64,000 nucleotides of DNA, taken from NCBI GenBank assembly GCA_028279245.1, contig JANQOE010000004.1, positions 31,724 to 95,723 of the forward strand, read 5' to 3'. The translations under genes were made by a program, and so were the position numbers. Below are positions 26,293 through 51,900 of this stretch, in pieces. Origin of the DNA: Alphaproteobacteria bacterium (GTDB lineage Bacteria > Pseudomonadota > Alphaproteobacteria > UBA6615). A model generated the notes under the pieces. It did no database searches. It had not been told where the DNA came from and was given only the letters and a program-made list of their open reading frames with translations. Position 1 is the first letter of the stretch; the number at the start of each line of letters is the position of its first letter.

Positions 26293-27192
26293 TCAGGCGA
26301 ATTGGGGCGCGATGCGGTAGTTCCGGGCAAGCCGCAGTTTGCCCAACAGCAGCAGGACGGTGCCGTTGTAGTCGATCAACCGGTTGAGGAAACCCTTACG
26401 CGGCAAATGCAGAATGCTGCACGGGTAGGCGTGGTGATGCCGATGGAAGGCTTCGCCCCCGGTGAGAAGCGCTAGGCCCCAGGTCACCCACTTCGGTACC
26501 TGCATGTGGCCGCAGACATTCACACCGATCGTCGTTGCATGAAAATGGACGCCTCTCGCCAGCACCACCGTCGCATGGATTAGGAGTGCCGGCACAATTC
26601 CACCGCCTAGGGCCAGCACAGCTCCGTAGCAACACAATGGTACTCCCAGGTGAACGAGGAGGGAGAGCAGGACATGGTGCTTGTCGGCAAAGGCGATGAC
26701 GCGGTTCTCGCGTAGCCAGCGGACCATGGGGCGCTGCATGTCCGCGGGGTCCCGCCACATAACCCAGCCGATCCAGGCCCAGAATCTGCCTTCCGCGGGA
26801 TTGTGCGGATCGCCGGGTCTGTCGGCAAAACGGTGGTGCTGGGCGTGATAGTTGACCCAGTCTTTGATCTTGCCCTGCATGGCCAGGATACAGTTCAAAC
26901 CGACGATGAGTTGGGCAATGGTCCGCAGTTCACCGGCCTTGTGCTGCCAAATGCGATGTAGAGGGCCGATGCCCTGATTGCACAGGAACAGTGTTGCCGC
27001 TCCGGCCGCCAATGCGATCGGCAGGTGCCACCATCGGATGGCGAGACTTGGCCAACCCAGTCCTATTCCCAAGGCAATAACCAGACCCAACAAACCCAGC
27101 GCGGGGTAGATCACTGCCGAGAAAACGCTGGGCCAGCTTAGACTAGCCCAGCTCTTCCTAATGAACGCTGCGCGGGGTGCGAGTTGAGCCAT
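26293..27192 (-). CDS. Acyl-CoA (delta-9) fatty-acid desaturase, membrane
   Basis: His boxes WVNYHAQHHRFADRPGDPHNPAEGRFWAWIGW and GEAFHRHHHAYP match the stearoyl-CoA desaturase family. Confidence 0.75.
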   Translation of the reverse strand: MAQLAPRAAFIRKSWASLSWPSVFSAVIYPALGLLGLVIALGIGLGWPSLAIRWWHLPIALAAGAATLFLCNQGIGPLHRIWQHKAGELRTIAQLIVGLNCILAMQGKIKDWVNYHAQHHRFADRPGDPHNPAEGRFWAWIGWVMWRDPADMQRPMVRWLRENRVIAFADKHHVLLSLLVHLGVPLCCYGAVLALGGGIVPALLIHATVVLARGVHFHATTIGVNVCGHMQVPKWVTWGLALLTGGEAFHRHHHAYPCSILHLPRKGFLNRLIDYNGTVLLLLGKLRLARNYRIAPQFA

Positions 27193-43912: not shown

Positions 43913-45208
43913 TCACATCTCGGGTGCCGTGTAGATCGTACGGCCGTCGACGACCGTGCGGAGAACCTGCCCTTGAACCAAACGTCCGTCAAACGGCGAG
44001 TTCTTCGATTTGGACCGTAGCGCGTCGGCATCGATCCGCCACGGGCGCCCCGGGTCAAACAAGACCAGGTCGGCGGGTGCGCCCGGCGCGAGGCGGCCGA
44101 CCGGCAGTCCCATGCGTTCCGCCGGAACGACAGTCACCTTGCGTAAGGCGTCCGGCAGGGACAAGTGACCGTTGTGGGCCAGCTCCAGAGTGAGGGGCAG
44201 CAAGGTTTCCATCCCGATGCCGCCAGGTGCCGCTTGGGCGAAAGGCAGGCGCTTCGAATCTTGATCCTGGGGTGCGTGGTCGGAGGCGATCAAGTCGATC
44301 GTGCCGTCCTTCAACCCTTCGACAATCGCCTGTCGGTCGTCCTCGCTGCGCAGCGGCGGGGTCAGCTTGGCGAAGGTGCGGTAGTCGGCGATCGACAGTT
44401 CGTTCAAGGCGAAGTTGGGTGGTGTTGCGTCGCAGGTGACGTCGAGACCGCGTGACTTTGCGGCCCGGATGCGCTCCACCGATGCCGCCGTGGAGATTGC
44501 CGCCGCATGGTACCGACCGCCGGTCATCTCGACCAAGGTGAGGTCGCGGTCGAGCATGATGGTCTCGGCCTCGCGCGGGATCCCCGGCAGCCCCAGCCGG
44601 GTCGACAGCTCGCCAGCGTTCATAACGCCATCGTCAACCAGGCTTGGCTCTTCGGGATGCTGCATCAGCAACGCGCCAAAGGTTGTGGCATAGCTCAGGG
44701 CGCGGGCCACTACCGACGCCTTACTGACCCCTACCGGACCGTCGCTGAAGGCGATGGCGCCGGCTTCTCGCAGCAGGCCGAACTCGGTCATTTCGTTGCC
44801 CGCCAGATCCTTTGTTATGGCGGCGTGGGTGAATACTTTAACAGTTTTGACTTCACGGGCGCGGCGGGCGACAAACTCGATCCCAGCGACGTCATCGATC
44901 ACCGGTTCGGTGTTGGGCAAGGCGATCATGGTGGTCACGCCACCGGCGGCGGCGGCTCGGCTCGCGCTGTTGATGTCTTCCTGGTGCTCGGCGCCGGGTT
45001 CCCGCAATTGAACACGGATATCGACCAGGCCGGGTGACAGGACGGCGCCGCCGCAATCGACGACATCGGCGCCCTCCGGCGTGGCGCCGTTGGCGATGCC
45101 GGGGCCGAGATCAGCGATGATCCCGTTTTCAGCCAAGAGGCCGCCGGGGGCGTCCAGGCCTGTGGCGGGGTCGAGCAAGCGGGCGTTGCGGTAGACTGTC
45201 CGCTTCAT
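43913..45208 (-). CDS. pyrC: Dihydroorotase (multifunctional-complex type)
   Basis: Amidohydrolase metal ligands ([10 protein letters not shown] ... ASDHAPQD); pyrC-pyrB adjacency. Confidence 0.85.
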
Positions 45209-46182
45209 AAAGCGCCGGCCTCCCGGACGCCGTGCGCCAGCAGGTCGAGGCACGCCATGCGCACGGCCACGCCCATCTCGACTTGTTCGTGGATAAGGCT
45301 TCTGTCAATATCGTCAGCGACTTGTGAATCGATCTCAACACCTCGATTCATCGGCCCCGGGTGCATGATCAGCGCGTCCGGCTTGGCGAATTGCAGCTTT
45401 TCATAGTCCAGGCCGAAGAAGCGGAAGTATTCGCGGATAGATGGGACGAAGGTGCCCTGCATGCGCTCCCGCTGGAGCCGCAGCATCATGACGATGTCGC
45501 AATCCGCCAGACCCCGGCGCATGTCGTGGAACACCTCGACCCCGAGCCGTTCCAACTCCGGCGGCAGCAGTGTTGGCGGCGCGACCACACGGACTCGGGC
45601 GCCCATGGTCTGCAGCAGGTAGATATTGGAGCGGGCCACGCGGCTGTGGGCGATGTCGCCGCACAGCGCGACCTGCAAGTCGCGTAGATGGCCGCGGCGC
45701 CGGCGGATCGTCAGTGCGTCGAGCAGAGCCTGGGTCGGGTGTTCATGACTCCCGTCGCCGGCGTTGATGACGGCGCAATTAACCTTTTCCGACAACAGCT
45801 TAACGGCGCCGGCATCGGGATGGCGGACGGCCAGGACGTCGGCGTGCATCGCATTGAGGGTCATCGCGGTGTCGATCAGGGTCTCGCCCTTCTTGATCGA
45901 ACTACTGCCGACGGAGATGTTGATGACGTCGGCGCCGAGGCGCTTGCCAGCCAGCTCAAAACTCGTCCGGGTCCGGGTCGAATTCTCGAAGAACAGGTTG
46001 ATGCAGGTGCAGCCGCTAAGAGTGCTCAGCTTGCGCCCGCGGCCCCGGCTTTGCTCGGCATATTCTTCCGAAAGGTCCAGCAGCTGGGAGATATCATCGG
46101 GGGATAGTCCCTCGATGCCGAGCAAATGGCGGTGCGGATAGGGCGGCGGCGCGGATTCTGGGGAAATCGGCGAGATAGCCAT
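45205..46182 (-). CDS. pyrB: Aspartate carbamoyltransferase catalytic subunit
   Basis: STRTRTSFE carbamoyl-phosphate motif, HPTQ, HPGP. Confidence 0.9.
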
Positions 46183-46267
46183 CAAAACGGTCTTATACGG
46201 GCACCGGTGAGTCGCGGACAAGCCATCCAAGCTTGTTTTTTCGCACCTGCAGCATTAGCTATCTCCC

Positions 46268-46345
46268 ATGATCGCGTATCTGGCTTCGACCACCACGGCC
46301 ACAACGACGACCCGCTGCGGCGGGCCGGGGCTTGGCGTGTGCTGA
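46268..46345 (+). promoter_or_regulatory. Putative threonine-rich leader peptide ORF (MIAYLASTTTATTTTRCGGPGLGVC), candidate attenuator leader
   Basis: 25 codons, 7 Thr in codons 8-15 (acc acc acg gcc aca acg acg acc); lies between the pyrB promoter region and the thrS-like gene; weak Shine-Dalgarno. Confidence 0.45.
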
Positions 46346-46370
46346 TCGATAGCTGATACGCCGAAGCAAA

Positions 46371-46410
46371 CGGCCCCGCCGGCAAACGGACGGGGCCTTT
46401 TGATTCTTGG
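46371..46410 (+). terminator. Intrinsic terminator-like hairpin (GGCCCCGCC...GGACGGGGCC) plus U-tract, candidate attenuator terminator
   Basis: 9-bp GC stem with one bulge followed by TTTTGATTCTT, ~40 nt upstream of the thrS-like start; upstream GCGGCGGGCC (46317-46326) can pair with its left arm as an alternative structure. Confidence 0.55.
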
Positions 46411-46447
46411 GCTCCCGTCCTCCAACCCCCTTCGAGAGGACACACCA

Positions 46448-47719
46448 ATGGACCCGAACGACCACCGAATGATCGCCAAGCGCATGGACCTTTTCCATTT
46501 GCAGGAAGAGGGCCTGGGCATGGTGTTTTGGCACCCTGCTGGTTTCGCACTTTACGAGGTGATCGAGAGTTTCATCCGCAGGCAGATGCGCGCGGCCGGC
46601 TTTCAAGAGATCCGGACGCCGCAGTTGCTGGACCGGGGCCTATGGGAGGCCAGCGGCCACTGGGACAAGTTCGGCGAGAACATGTTTGCGCTGGACGATG
46701 GTGAGCGCGTGCTGGCGCTGAAACCCATGAGTTGCCCGGCGCATGTGCAGATCTTCAACCATCGCCCGCGGTCGTTTCGGGAACTGCCGATGCGGCTGTG
46801 TGAATTCGGTTCCTGCCTCCGCAATGAGCCGTCCGGCGCTTTACTGGGTCTGATGCGGACCCGGGCGTTTGTGCAGGACGATGCCCACATCTTTTGCCTG
46901 CCCGAGCAGATCGAGGCCGAGGTGCGGAACTTCTGCGCGATGCTTGCGGAGATCTATCGGGCCTTCGGTTTCAGCGATGTCGAGGTCCGGTTCGCCAATC
47001 GGCCAAAACAGCGGGCCGGTTCCGATGAGGCGTGGGACATGGCCGAGGCTCGCCTGGAACGGGCTGCCTTGGCCGCCGGGCTCGATTTCGAGACCAGTTC
47101 CGGTGAGGGCGCCTTCTATGGGCCGAAGCTCGAATTCCATCTGCGCGACAATCGCGGCCGGCGTTGGCAGTGCGGCACTGTGCAGCTCGACATGGTCCTG
47201 CCGGAACGGCTGGGGGCGGAGTATGTCGATGCTGCGGACCGGCGGCAGCGCCCGGTGATGTTGCACCATGCCGTGCTGGGCAGTGTCGAGCGTTTCATCG
47301 GCGTGCTGCTGGAACATCACGCCGGCAAACTGCCGCTTTGGCTGGCGCCGGTACAGGTCGTGGTCGCCTCGGTTGGTGGTCAGCAGGCGGACTATGTCTC
47401 CAGTGTCGTAGATCGGCTTAGTCGACTTGGCTATCGCGTGCGGGCCGATGTCAGGGATGAGCGGCTGTCGCGCAAGGTCGTTGATGCCCGGGGAATCGGC
47501 GCGCCGGTGTTTCTCACCGTGGGCAAGAATGAGATGCAGGCGGACACTGTGGCGCTGCGGGAAAGCGATGGTAGTCAGACAAGCCTCAGCGTTGAGGGGT
47601 TAGACGACCATCTGCGCCCCAACGCCTTCCGTGAATCTTCGGGGGTTGCGTCTAGACCGGTCGTCATGGGGCACGGTTGGCGGCCTGTTTCAGATAGTCG
47701 AGGTATCCCTGGAGTATGA
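46448..47719 (+). CDS. Truncated threonyl-tRNA synthetase paralog (catalytic plus anticodon-binding domains only)
   Basis: Collinear with E. coli ThrRS from about residue 242 (NDHRMIAKRMDLFHLQEE ~ RDHRKLGKQLDLYHMQEE) through motifs 1-3 and zinc ligands (KPMSCPAHVQIF, QDDAHIFC, VMLHHAVLGSVERF) to the anticodon-binding domain; no TGS or N2 editing domains. Confidence 0.85.
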   Translation: MDPNDHRMIAKRMDLFHLQEEGLGMVFWHPAGFALYEVIESFIRRQMRAAGFQEIRTPQLLDRGLWEASGHWDKFGENMFALDDGERVLALKPMSCPAHVQIFNHRPRSFRELPMRLCEFGSCLRNEPSGALLGLMRTRAFVQDDAHIFCLPEQIEAEVRNFCAMLAEIYRAFGFSDVEVRFANRPKQRAGSDEAWDMAEARLERAALAAGLDFETSSGEGAFYGPKLEFHLRDNRGRRWQCGTVQLDMVLPERLGAEYVDAADRRQRPVMLHHAVLGSVERFIGVLLEHHAGKLPLWLAPVQVVVASVGGQQADYVSSVVDRLSRLGYRVRADVRDERLSRKVVDARGIGAPVFLTVGKNEMQADTVALRESDGSQTSLSVEGLDDHLRPNAFRESSGVASRPVVMGHGWRPVSDSRGIPGV

Positions 47720-48149
47720 ATGCCGCGGCCATCTTGTCCGTCACCTCGCTGCGACGTTTGCGCGACAGGTCGGCGTCGGCGACCAGGAGCCGCTCGACGG
47801 CGGCGGTCGACAGGCGTTCATCCCAGAACGCTATTGGACAGTCGATGATGGATGCGAGGTTGCGCGCGAAGTCGCGGGTCGACTGGCAGCGCGGCCCTTC
47901 GCTCCCATCCATATTCAGCGGAAGGCCCAGTACCAGGCCGCCAACCTGGTGTTCTTCGATTTGACTGCTCAACCTTGCGGCGTCGGCGCGGAACTTTGCT
48001 CGTCTGATTGTGTCGAGGGGAGTCGCCACAGTCCGGCTCGCGTCACTCAGGGCGAGGCCGATCGTCTTGGACCCCAGGTCCAAGCCCAGCAGCCGATCCA
48101 TCGGTTTGAGCCAATGAAGCAGATCGAGAGGGGCCTCTGCTATGGTCAT
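47664..48149 (-). CDS. ruvX: Putative Holliday-junction resolvase RuvX (YqgF)
   Basis: LLGLDLGSKTIGLALSD ... RNase H-like fold; 3' end overlaps the thrS-like 3' end by 56 nt (start may be the internal Met at 48101). Confidence 0.8.
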   Translation of the reverse strand: MTIAEAPLDLLHWLKPMDRLLGLDLGSKTIGLALSDASRTVATPLDTIRRAKFRADAARLSSQIEEHQVGGLVLGLPLNMDGSEGPRCQSTRDFARNLASIIDCPIAFWDERLSTAAVERLLVADADLSRKRRSEVTDKMAAAFILQGYLDYLKQAANRAP

Positions 48150-48240
48150 TCTGCTGCCTTTCCTGCTGGTCTCGGGTCCGGACTAGTCATCCGGGGGCCG
48201 AACCTGTAGCATTTTCCCTTGAACCACACCGTGTGTTTGC

Positions 48241-48945
48241 ATGCGCATTCTTCTGGTGGATGACGACGCTGATTTCGCGGAAATGGTTCGCGATTATCTA
48301 AGCGACAAAGGGCAGCACGTCGCGATTGCCGGTGATGGGCAGGAGATGCGCGACTGCCTGGAGCGGGATCCCTTCGACATCGTTTTGTTGGATCTGGTGC
48401 TGCCGCAAGAGGATGGTCTCGTCCTTACCCAGTATCTTCGAGAGAATACCGACGCTGGTGTGATTATCTTGAGCGGCGCCGGGACTCTTGTTGACCGGGT
48501 GGTATCGCTCGAACTCGGCGCCGACGACTATCTGCAGAAGCCCTTCGAACTGCGCGAATTGCTGGCCCGGGTGAACAGCCTGCATCGGCGGGTCAGAGCC
48601 GGCCAGCGGTCGTTGCGGCAAGCCAAGGTTGCAGCTTTTGCCGGATGGCGCCTCGATCTGCAGAACCGGAAACTGTTCAGGCCGACCGGCGGCGAAGTCT
48701 CGCTCACATCGACAGAGTTTTCGCTGCTTCGCACGTTGGTGAGTCATCCGTTCGAGGAGCTCAGTCGGGAGGAACTCATGCGCGAGATCAAGGGACGTTC
48801 CGTCGAGGCATGGGGCCGGAACATCGATGTTCATGTCTTACGCCTGCGGCAGAAGATTGAAGCCAATCCGACCGAACCTGCCTTGCTTAAGACCGTGCAC
48901 GGCATTGGCTACACGTTCTGCGCCGATGTCGCGGAGGAAGGTTAG
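48241..48945 (+). CDS. OmpR-family winged-helix response regulator
   Basis: Receiver (ILLVDDD ... VLLDLVLP ... KPF) plus winged helix (LTSTEFSLLRTLV ... VHVLRLRQKIE ... TVHGIGY). Confidence 0.85.
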   Translation: MRILLVDDDADFAEMVRDYLSDKGQHVAIAGDGQEMRDCLERDPFDIVLLDLVLPQEDGLVLTQYLRENTDAGVIILSGAGTLVDRVVSLELGADDYLQKPFELRELLARVNSLHRRVRAGQRSLRQAKVAAFAGWRLDLQNRKLFRPTGGEVSLTSTEFSLLRTLVSHPFEELSREELMREIKGRSVEAWGRNIDVHVLRLRQKIEANPTEPALLKTVHGIGYTFCADVAEEG

Positions 48946-51900
48946 ACAGATAGAAGCGCCAGCGTGTCGGCTAGCTGCTCCTTGCTGAACGGTTTGGATA
49001 GGAACGCGGTCGAAGGGTCTCCGGCACCGATATCCCGGCGAATAGCCTGACCGGAAACCAACAAGATTGGTAGGGTCGGGATCTGGTTTCGGGCGGTCCG
49101 GGCGAGTTCAATACCTTCCATGCCGTTGCCGAAGACGACATCTGTTACCAGAACCGCAGCATAAGGGTGCTCCGACAGAGCGGATAATGCAGTCGACGCA
49201 TCGGTTGCTTGGCGGGTCTCATAGCCCAGCTCTTGCAGCCGCCGTGCCGTCAACGCCAACATGTCTGGCTGATCATCGACGACAATAGCAATGTTGTGGC
49301 GGGGTTCTCGCTTGTGCGGTGCGGTAGCAGGGGGCCGCTTCTGTTTGCCGGGAGGGCCACATGGGAGAACGAGTTGAACCGTGGTCCCCTTACCTTCCTC
49401 CGACTCGATTGTGAGTCCGCCGCCGGATTGACGCATGAAGCCATATACGACGCTTAGACCCAAGCCGGAGCCGTTCCGCTTTGTCGAAAAGAAAGGCTCC
49501 ATGATGCGCGGGCGGATCTCCGCGGGAATGCCGAGTCCGCTGTCCCTGAGGCTCAACACGACATACCGGCCAGGGTTCAGATCCGATCCAGGCTGGACCG
49601 TTTCGATTTCCAGATTCTGGGCTCTGATATCCAGCCGGCCGCCGTCGGGCATCGCGGCGCCGGCGTTCAAAGCGATGTTCAGCAAGGCATCTTCCAGCCG
49701 TCCCGCGTCGACCCAGACGGGCCAGAGCCCGAGCGGCGAATTGAGGGTCACCCGTGTTTTCGAACCGAGCGCGCTACGGATGACGTCTATGATCTCGCCA
49801 AGGATCTGGTTCGGCCTGATGGCGTCGGCCCGCAAACTCTGCCGGCGACCGACGGCGAGCAAACGTTCGGTCAGGGTGGCGCCGCGGCGCACGGCCCGTA
49901 AACCGGCCTGCACACGGCGCGTCAATTCGGGCGTCTCCCTGGTCTGCTCGCCGAGAATCTCCAGGTTGCCTCGGATGACGGCCAGGAGATTGTTGAAGTC
50001 GTGCGCGACCCCACCGGCCAGTTGGCCAATCATTTCCATGCGTTGGGCATGGGCGATCCGGTTGTCAGTGTGCCGGCGCTCCGTGATGTCCAAATTGAAG
50101 CCGGCCATGCCGACCAAGTCGCGGTCGGTATCGAACACTGGGAACTTGGTCACCTCGAGGATACGATCCTCGCCGTTTGGGCATTTCGAGATTACCTCCC
50201 GGGTAACCGGGTGCCGCGTCGCGCGGACCTCGGTTTCGATCCGTCTGTATTCTCTGGCGATCTTGTCCGGCAATAGATCCTGGATGCGCTTGCCGTAGAT
50301 ATCCTCGATCGGACGATCGAGGTTCTTCGCCAGCAGTGGGCTGGCAATCACGTAGCGGCCGTCCAAATCGTTCATGGAGATCGCGAACGGGAGGTTCTCG
50401 ATGAGTGCGCGAAGGCGCTGTTCGGACTGTTGTCGTGCTTCATCGGCCCGACGTTGTTCCGTCACGTCAACAGCGATCCCCGCTAAGCCAATCAGTGCGC
50501 CACCTGTGTCGAAGATCGGGAATTTTATGACGTCATGGAAACGTGTCTTGCCCGCCCGTTCATAGAGGATTACCTCGCGGGCTGGCCGCTCGTTCTCAAG
50601 GACCGCCTGATCGATGGCTCCTGTTCTGGCGGCAACCTCTGGTGCAAGCATATCAGCCGCGGTCTTGCCGGCGTAATCTCCACTATCCGGTTCAAACAAC
50701 GCCTGCCCCGCCGCGTTTACGAATAGGTACCGGCCGACCGTATCCTTCATGAATAGGGGGTGGGGCAAACTATCAGCGATCACCTGGAAGCGATGTTCGC
50801 TGTCCAGGCGGGCTTTCTCAGCTTCTTCCTGTTCAGTGATGTCTATGGCAACGCTAGCAAGGCCGATCATTTGGCCGGCATGATCGAAAACCGGGAACTT
50901 TGTGACGTCCAGCACCCGGTTTGAACCATCGTCCAGTGTGAACCACGAGCGATAGCGAAGCGATCGCTGCTTGTTCATGACATGACGGTCGGCGGCTCTT
51001 GATCGACGCGCCGCGCCTGCAGGGAACATGTCAGACGCCGTCTTGCCGATGACACCCTCTGGCGGGTCAGTTACGCGAAATGTCTTGCAGAATGCAGAAT
51101 TGACGAGAGTGTATCGACCCGCGGGGTCCTTCATTGCCAGCGAATAGGGCAAATTATCTATGAGGATCCGAAACCGCTTCTCAGTGTCTGCCAACTTCTG
51201 CTTGAAGTGATAACGTTCGCTGACGTCAACGTTGATGCCTCCAACGCCTATGATCTTACCGTCCCGTCCGAACACCGGAAACTTGGTTATTTCCAGATGA
51301 TGGGGTTCATCATCAGGGGGTGTTGAAACAAAGCTTCGATGGACTGGTTTGCCCGTCCCGACGACCTCGCGGTCGATACTCTGCGCCTCTTCGGTCTCTT
51401 TGTCTGAGAAGAATACACTAGTGCTGCGGCCAACGAGTTCCGGGCTTGACCGGCCTACAAAGCCAGCGAAAGCTCTGTTGACGAGGGTATATCTACCCTC
51501 CCTATCCTTCAGATAGGCGCCATGCGGCAAGCTCTCGATTAGTGTTTCAAGTTGTTGGTGTTCTTTCTCCAGGGCTCTGTTCGCGTCGTGAAGCCGATCC
51601 AACATACTGTTGAAAGTCCGGGCTACTCGGCCGACCTCGTCTCGGCCTAGGGACGGAGCCCGGACAGTGAAGTCACCGGCGGCGACAGCGTTTGCCGTCG
51701 ATTCGAGTGTTGCGAGCCGTCGTGTTATCAATGTGCTAAGCAAGAGCAGCGTGAGTACGCTGACTGCTGCGGTCGCCATGGCGAGAAGGAGGCCCTTCGC
51801 CACGACGGCTTGGCTGGCTGACTCCAGGAGGGCCGCAGACAAGACCACGGAAGCCGTACCGATCTGCTCGCCGCTGAGTGTGATCGGGGTTGTTAGGTTG

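Follow-up and report, generated by a model that had tools for sequence, protein, structure and literature searches.

A probable threonine-responsive leader-peptide attenuator upstream of a short threonyl-tRNA synthetase gene without editing domains

In Bacillus subtilis, the T-box system of thrZ and thrS keeps a second threonyl-tRNA synthetase (ThrRS) gene off by means of a leader terminator and induces it when charging of tRNA-Thr falls. ThrZ is a full-length enzyme, and the T-box RNA is bound directly by uncharged tRNA, with no ribosome and no leader open reading frame (ORF) involved. Analysis of a 64,000-nucleotide stretch of an alphaproteobacterial contig (JANQOE010000004.1; the whole stretch is referred to below as the window) revealed a different arrangement upstream of a short thrS gene, in which a leader ORF rich in Thr codons is followed by an intrinsic terminator. 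This element is likely to be a ribosome-mediated transcription attenuator through which the level of Thr-tRNA(Thr) governs a ThrRS without editing domains. The T-box covariance model gave no match in the window or at the related loci.

The closest described systems are leader-peptide attenuators. A first-pass annotation of the window had remarked on the position of the element before a tRNA-Thr-charging enzyme instead of a biosynthetic operon; attenuators before aminoacyl-tRNA synthetase genes have precedents in E. coli pheM-pheST, cited as the proteobacterial case, and in predicted attenuators of trpS and leuS in Streptomyces (PMC1262725). In pheM-pheST, as proposed here, a leader-peptide attenuator precedes a synthetase gene and senses the charged tRNA made by that enzyme, but the leader is Phe-rich and unrelated in sequence and the enzyme is the housekeeping one rather than a truncated paralog, whereas the leader described here is probably leaderless. 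Further leader-peptide attenuators have been predicted for alaS, thrS, trpS and leuS in S. lividans (PMC8079986), and His leaders have been predicted for hisS paralogs in bacilli (PMC2965389). The Gram-positive cases share with the window a short ORF of cognate codons before a synthetase gene; S. lividans thrL is also leaderless, and the Bacillus case also concerns paralogs. However, they belong to other phyla, show no sequence similarity to the window leader and involve no truncated enzyme, and S. lividans thrL contains only two Thr codons and has no clear terminator.

Two attenuators of biosynthetic genes are also comparable. Enterobacterial thrL-thrABC (RF00506 Thr_leader; Pfam Leader_Thr) shares the runs of Thr codons, a leader of approximately 20-27 codons, alternative hairpins and an intrinsic terminator, but thrL also contains Ile codons and controls threonine biosynthesis, whereas the leaders described here contain regulatory codons for Thr only and precede a synthetase. 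Neither model was matched, RF00506 being searched against the window and 28 related loci and Leader_Thr against five leader peptides. In Sinorhizobium meliloti, trpL/rnTrpL is an alphaproteobacterial ribosome-mediated attenuator with a leaderless RNA whose transcription begins at the AUG (PMC6614838); it differs from the window leader in its Trp codons, its biosynthetic operon, trpE(G), and its sequence, and a role in trans has been shown for rnTrpL. More generally, searches at the Rfam gathering score over the window and the 28 related loci returned no family, a search of 46150-46500 at an E-value of up to 10 returned only a weak match to an unrelated family, and Pfam and NCBIfam scans of the five leader peptides found no leader-peptide family. 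The literature searched contains neither a Thr leader before a proteobacterial thrS nor a natural family of short bacterial ThrRS, although this search did not cover the main survey of proteobacterial attenuators (Vitreschak et al. 2004), in which a prior description is possible.

The features of the locus are collected in Table 1. The 25-codon, Thr-rich leader ORF proposed in the first-pass annotation stood up to analysis; codons 8-15 (46289-46312) read ACC ACC ACG GCC ACA ACG ACG ACC, which gives seven Thr in eight consecutive codons. The accompanying claim that such a run is improbable by chance was also confirmed, as the leader ORF is the only one among 2571 ORFs of the window (8-60 codons, both strands) with more than five Thr per eight codons. 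The two runners-up, each with five Thr per eight codons, lie on the minus strand at 26599-26637 (MTTTATTPNGTR) and at 46014-46046 (within pyrB, in another frame), and both are most likely by-products of G+C-rich coding sequence. Downstream of the leader, the proposed 9-bp GC hairpin approximately 25 nt after the stop codon was recovered together with its T-rich tail, although the pair count had to be corrected: the terminator comprises 10 bp and a bulged A, and begins 26 nt past the leader stop codon. The window contains a single copy of the hairpin pattern, and 100 shuffles contain none even when three mismatches are tolerated. A role for the hairpin as the terminator of pyrB was considered and ruled out because pyrB, which lies upstream (46182 down to 45205), is divergent.

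Table 1. Coordinates of the predicted regulatory elements and of the short thrS gene in the window
Feature	Coordinates	Strand	Basis or remarks
Putative promoter: TTGTTT (46233-46238), 17 nt spacer, TAGCTA (46256-46261)	46233..46261	+	Position only
Leader ORF, 25 codons, MIAYLASTTTATTTTRCGGPGLGVC	46268..46345	+	ATG 46268, TGA 46343-46345; homologous leaders at all short-thrS loci
Regulatory codons (region 1): 7 Thr among 8 codons (ACC, ACG, ACA)	46289..46312	+	Sequence, fold
Region 2, G-rich 5' strand of the antiterminator, UGCGGCGGGCCG (codes Cys-Gly-Gly-Pro)	46316..46327	+	Predicted pairing with 46371-46384
Intrinsic terminator (regions 3 and 4), GGCCCCGCCG-GCAAA-CGG-A-CGGGGCC	46372..46397	+	Folding, -21 to -24 kcal/mol
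U-tract, UUUUGAUUCUU	46398..46408	+	Sequence; T-rich tails after the hairpin at nearly all loci
C-rich box CUCCCGUCCUCC (46412-46423) pairing with the Shine-Dalgarno region GAGAGGAC (46434-46441)	46412..46441	+	Predicted
Short thrS, 423 aa: catalytic core and anticodon-binding domain, no TGS/editing domains	46448..47719	+	Profile, Pfam, alignment

Comparison of related loci revealed that the leader accompanies the short enzyme. Protein similarity identified 20 short-thrS loci, the window included, which span Alpha-, Beta- and Gammaproteobacteria and Myxococcota, plus two Burkholderiaceae plasmids. All 20 have the Thr-run leader, the GGCGGG segment and the terminator, so the small ORF and its Thr run are conserved in relatives across four major lineages. 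In a species scan with one genome each, the enzyme was found to be short at ten of 80 thrS loci, where the reading frame closes 29-87 codons ahead of the match; the ten originate from Inquilinus, Paraburkholderia, Burkholderia, Myxococcus, a Polyangiaceae, a Steroidobacteraceae and one unclassified Pseudomonadota. Every one of the ten features a short Thr-run ORF followed by Gly-Gly, 100-170 nt upstream, and a terminator. Leader and terminator are likewise present at seven of seven short thrS genes from other assemblies, no two of which share the same neighbours and one of which is syntenic with the window. This variation in neighbours between loci indicates that the leader travels with thrS. 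The linkage is also exclusive: within 3 kb upstream of the 80 thrS loci, Thr-run ORFs occur only directly before thrS, the single exception being an out-of-frame artefact inside thrS.

Both Burkholderiaceae plasmid copies, on pM7012 of Burkholderia sp. M701 and on a 2-Mb Caballeronia replicon, carry the leader, which is unannotated in each. Its presence on pM7012 shows that the gene-plus-attenuator cassette is mobile. On this conjugative, 582-kb plasmid (NC_022995.1; locus L209), a short thrS with the leader MRFHSIPLFAVTTTTTTFTGGSSGGCAR is found at 1275-1488, and RefSeq annotates thrS but not the leader. Full-length thrS genes rarely have a Thr leader (5 of approximately 67 loci with enough upstream sequence: L013, L014, L049, L055 and L076), and the sequences suggest that the short form arose from a full-length gene that was already attenuated. 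The five leader-bearing full-length genes are all alphaproteobacterial, and the terminator sequence of L055 is identical to that of the short-thrS class.

An alignment of 31 non-redundant leaders contains three near-invariant blocks, namely the end of the Thr run, GGCGGG and the terminator. The number of Thr codons per leader ranges from 3 to 9 (ACC 95, ACG 78, ACT 12 and ACA 9 in total), and Thr is the sole enriched residue in the short-thrS leaders, among which the peptide tail Gly-Gly-(Pro/Ser) is conserved. Terminator pairs are formed in 94.8% of alignment cells, the outer pairs covary between A-U and G-C, and the loop is a conserved GNRA tetraloop (GCGA, GAAA or GCAA). The distance from stop codon to hairpin is conserved as well, at 10-34 nt in the first 16 leaders examined.

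The product of the downstream gene is a truncated ThrRS. It matches TIGR00418 with 454.9 bits (cutoff 383.65) over profile positions 171-561 of 565 only, contains PF00587 (class II core) and PF03129 (anticodon-binding) as its only Pfam domains, and aligns with residues 242-616 of E. coli ThrRS, its start being equivalent to residue 242; 16 codons before the ATG the frame is already closed. The alignment with E. coli ThrRS shows the Zn-ligand motifs CP.H, QDD.H and LH, and the short enzyme looks functional by sequence. Among the 120 best protein-database relatives, 119 have 371-426 aa and only the two C-terminal Pfam domains, and a neighbour-joining tree places 18 of 18 short enzymes in one clade with none of 70 full-length enzymes inside it. 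As judged from these relatives, the short ThrRS is a natural, monophyletic and widely distributed gene family. A role in self-resistance of the ObaO type was rejected: ObaO, with 637 aa, is a full-length enzyme, the short thrS has no biosynthetic cluster around it, and the substitutions that confer resistance on ThrRS (G463S and L489M in E. coli numbering; PMC11252418) are absent from the window protein, which retains FYGPK and QLD..LP.

The domains of the window protein are exactly those of laboratory-truncated ThrRS (E. coli 242-642, PDB 1EVK; Anabaena T2 deltaN), although these are engineered fragments whereas the window protein belongs to a natural gene family. N-terminally truncated ThrRS constructs aminoacylate tRNA and have no editing activity (PMC4787780). 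By analogy, the short ThrRS would be the natural equivalent of such constructs, able to charge but not to edit. From these known properties we infer that it serves as a back-up synthetase whose inability to edit Ser-tRNA(Thr) would be the reason to hold it silent; it may be a back-up paralog, or some lineages may have no other ThrRS.

Folding of the full leader gave a minimum free energy (MFE) of -76.5 kcal/mol (z = -4.3), a stability not reached by any of 200 shuffles. The MFE fold of 46255-46415 consists of a long hairpin at 46276-46359, in which the Thr codons form the 5' arm, and the terminator. Regions 1 and 2 of the window pair through CCCGC (46311-46315) and GCGGG (46320-46324), whereas omission of the terminator 3' arm leads 46316-46327 to pair with 46371-46384, which is the terminator 5' arm. 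In these predicted folds, the window leader has the 1:2, 2:3, 3:4 layout of trpL-type attenuators. The segment GCGGCGGGCC, placed by the first-pass annotation at 46317-46326 inside the leader ORF, is indeed found there, and terminator and antiterminator are predicted to be mutually exclusive in the window and likewise in the 31 non-redundant leaders.

These 31 leaders were folded in three states with simple ribosome footprints, in which a terminating ribosome was represented by the stop codon plus 13 nt. The terminator is predicted in 28 of the 31 leaders with no ribosome and in 29 with a ribosome at the stop codon. In the latter state the gap between footprint and terminator is 0-22 nt, and at least 6 nt of the terminator 5' arm are paired upstream in 4 of 31 leaders; with the ribosome stalled in the Thr run, this is the case in all 31. 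The antiterminator core pairs in 92.6% of cells, as opposed to 31-59% when the register is slid by 1-3 columns, and the apical helix (region 1:2) pairs in 81% of cells across loci, with exact partners that vary by lineage. Two compensatory classes, which are out of alignment by one column in the 31-leader alignment, were spotted by eye: L013 and L014 have GGAGGG:CCCTCC:GGAGGG in place of the GGCGGG:CCCGCC:GGaCGGG of other leaders, and L076 has GGGGGG in the leader and CCCCTCC in the terminator. The earlier claim that a leader segment can pair with the left arm of the terminator is supported by conservation and register specificity, whereas compensatory changes in its favour are few.

The putative promoter would, from its position, set the start of transcription at, or a few nt from, the leader ATG. 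Its TTGTTT-N17-TAGCTA stretch is conserved in the closest relative, L082. Of 30 loci, 24 have a box that matches TTGACA at five or more of six positions and begins 35-37 nt ahead of the leader start codon; in most related loci a -10-like hexamer ends 6-7 nt before this codon. No Shine-Dalgarno sequence precedes the leader ATG which, together with the proximity of the -10-like box, indicates that the leader peptide is probably translated from leaderless RNA. A strict sigma-70 scan of 45000-49500 called no promoter anywhere, and this null result argues neither for nor against a start before the leader. The first-pass annotation had raised the alternative that thrS is transcribed from a start downstream of the hairpin; no promoter-like site was found between hairpin and gene, an outcome that is favourable or neutral to attenuation.

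A mechanism is proposed in which transcription starts at or just before the leader AUG and a ribosome translates the 25-codon leader. When charged tRNA-Thr is plentiful, the ribosome would reach the stop codon (46343-46345) and cover 46316-46327, whereupon the terminator (46372-46397) would form and transcription would end in the U-tract. If no ribosome is loaded, the Thr-codon stretch would pair with the G-rich segment and the terminator would also form. When charged tRNA-Thr is scarce, the ribosome would stall in the Thr run (46289-46312) and the G-rich segment would be freed to pair with the terminator 5' arm (46371-46384) before the 3' arm is made, so that polymerase would read through into thrS. 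The thrL/trpL-type architecture initially claimed for the locus is thus supported by the leader, the terminator, the three-state folds and conservation at 20 of 20 short-thrS loci.

Several points weigh against this attenuator. With region 2 mononucleotide-shuffled, 57% of the terminator arm is still paired upstream, compared with 76% observed; the upstream partner is therefore weakly specific for the 5' arm, which reflects the high G+C content of the RNA. Near-invariant columns leave the antiterminator with little covariation, and its score (0.060 versus 0.048 in shuffles, reached by 41 of 500) is not significant. Stalling at the last two Thr codons would place the ribosome over part of region 2, the Myxococcus locus L023 has no U-tract, and the promoter boxes of the window itself are weak and missed by the strict sigma-70 consensus scan. 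Leader translation, stalling, the position of the transcription start and the response in vivo are all deduced from sequence, and the presence of a full-length thrS alongside the short one in the organism of the window is presumed.

The leaderless precedent also bears on a reading in which the locus works mainly in trans, through the terminated leader RNA or its peptide, in the manner of rnTrpL of S. meliloti, while cis control of thrS is secondary. This reading, which is compatible with cis attenuation rather than opposed to it, draws on the existence of an alphaproteobacterial leaderless attenuator RNA with trans functions (PMC6614838), on the very high conservation of the sequence outside the Thr codons and on the conserved Gly-Gly-(Pro/Ser) tail of the peptide. 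However, the Gly-Gly codons are nearly fixed even at their silent positions (GGC in 27 of 31 leaders, GGG in 25 of 31), whereas the Thr codons use four synonyms, thus indicating that the constraint acts on the RNA and not on the peptide. Strict linkage to thrS, including on a conjugative plasmid, favours a role in cis, and no target in trans is known. We consider it unlikely that a trans-acting product is the main output of the locus.

The hairpin is not restricted to thrS. Metagenome contigs were scanned with the terminator signature alone (GGCCCCGCCGG, 3-4 nt, CGGNCGGGGCC), which yielded at least 80 matches (L090-L167 among them). Thr leaders followed by a short thrS account for approximately 24 of the 80 matches listed. 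At least 12 among those listed precede asd, with leaders rich in Thr, Lys and Met (for example MFGQTKRTMKTMTPSDGVARVCAR; asd loci L099, L119, L142 and L159), and six among those listed precede dapA (for example L090, L153 and L147), three of them with recognisable short leaders, two of which are Lys/Thr-rich. The asd and dapA leaders resemble the thrS leaders in their length (approximately 20-25 codons) and in the distance from stop codon to hairpin (approximately 25 nt), and they feature a G-rich complement of CCCCGCC past the regulatory codons as well as -10-like boxes just before the ATG. Their sequences suggest that they use this platform for attenuation of aspartate-pathway genes in response to several amino acids. 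No Rfam family was matched by the asd/dapA-type leaders, and alphaproteobacterial tmRNA genes adjoin two of them. Approximately 20 of the 80 matches listed have no recognisable leader, and twelve among those listed form an unexplained group. In L111, L117, L120, L138, L150 and L162, and probably in L112, L152, L158, L161 and L166, the hairpin has the tail UUUUGUUUGGCC, an ORF like MTRFGWAVEGVVR lies before it, and an ORF of 100-140 aa (MPPQQT...) with no NCBIfam match follows.

Such a distribution could also reflect a generic, possibly mobile terminator or insulator, placed here between the divergent pyrB and thrS promoters, with an untranslated and incidental small ORF and any regulation of thrS achieved by other means. 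The identical 21-base signature does occur in many metagenome contexts, with thrS leaders accounting for only about 24 of the 80 listed matches and about 20 having no recognisable leader; moreover, the hairpin is terminator-like on the minus strand too, and the shuffle control indicates that upstream pairing is easily achieved in G+C-rich RNA. A generic terminator is nevertheless very unlikely, given that divergent pyrB leaves nothing to terminate here and that the Thr-run ORF occurs with the hairpin at 20 of 20 short-thrS loci, whatever their neighbours. The conserved distance between ORF stop and hairpin (10-34 nt in the first 16 leaders) and the single copy in the 64 kb window also speak against it, and elsewhere the hairpin follows ORFs enriched in amino acids of the pathway of the downstream gene (asd, dapA).

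Beyond the transcription attenuator, a translational layer may be coupled to antitermination via the C-rich box, which lies directly after the U-tract; modelling supports this in about half of 25 loci. A hairpin that masks the Shine-Dalgarno sequence of thrS is predicted in most short-thrS loci, and in the window the CCCGUCC within the C-rich box is complementary to GGACGGG of the terminator 3' arm. The C-rich box is the best partner of the 3' arm, at an offset of 16-21 nt, in 24 of 25 loci, and the pairing beats shuffles (z < -1.64) in 12 of 25. One double compensatory change was found in this pairing (L088), and in many loci little change is predicted in how accessible the Shine-Dalgarno sequence is at equilibrium. 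Autoregulation, in which the short ThrRS would bind a tRNA-like element in its own leader and repress as E. coli ThrRS does at its translational operator, is hardly credible even though the enzyme has an anticodon-binding domain, the conserved structured region includes the Shine-Dalgarno-masking hairpin immediately ahead of the thrS start and conservation of the terminator hairpin exceeds what region 2 pairing alone needs, because the conserved loop is a GNRA tetraloop rather than a 7-nt anticodon-like loop with NGU, the Thr codons and the ORF would have no role, and the hairpin is shared with the leaders of asd and dapA, neither of which encodes a tRNA-binding product.

A broader proposal that builds on the attenuator is possible but tentative. 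The window leader could belong to a superfamily, as yet undescribed, in which leaderless leader-peptide attenuators serve the aspartate family of amino acids (short thrS, asd and dapA) and all use one near-invariant platform with a GNRA-capped, A-bulged terminator. The 3' arm of this terminator (CGGACGGGG) would also pair with the C-rich box (CCUCCGUCC) that otherwise masks the Shine-Dalgarno sequence, so that antitermination and release of the ribosome site would be coupled in a five-strand relay. The thrS cargo would then be a natural non-editing ThrRS that is held silent on account of its serine mischarging and comes into play only in an emergency or to bypass an inhibitor.

The surroundings of the locus are of a housekeeping nature, with the gene order rnr, topA, dprA, plsY, pyrC, pyrB, thrS, ruvX, a two-component system, gatA and gatB. 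At 423 aa, the product of the window thrS is longer than the approximately 395 aa of nearly all relatives, owing to an extra C-terminal tail, and the gene overlaps the convergent ruvX by 56 nt (47664-47719). In the syntenic relative L082, thrS encodes 398 aa and the overlap with ruvX is only 4 nt. The longer window gene appears to have arisen when the stop codon was lost or shifted in this lineage.

The mechanism proposed for the short thrS leader is classical; less ordinary are its obligatory coupling to a non-editing ThrRS family, the apparently leaderless leader and the platform shared with asd and dapA. It would extend the leader-peptide attenuation of synthetase genes, documented in Proteobacteria for pheST, to thrS in Alpha-, Beta- and Gammaproteobacteria and in Myxococcota. 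The shared attenuator platform, which is absent from Rfam and also found before asd and dapA, would help to annotate many intergenic regions better. The attenuator also provides a testable regulatory logic for ThrRS genes without editing domains, a large family that has been widely transferred: expression of an error-prone synthetase would be confined to times of low charged tRNA-Thr, with implications for regulated mistranslation and for tolerance to antibiotics that target ThrRS.

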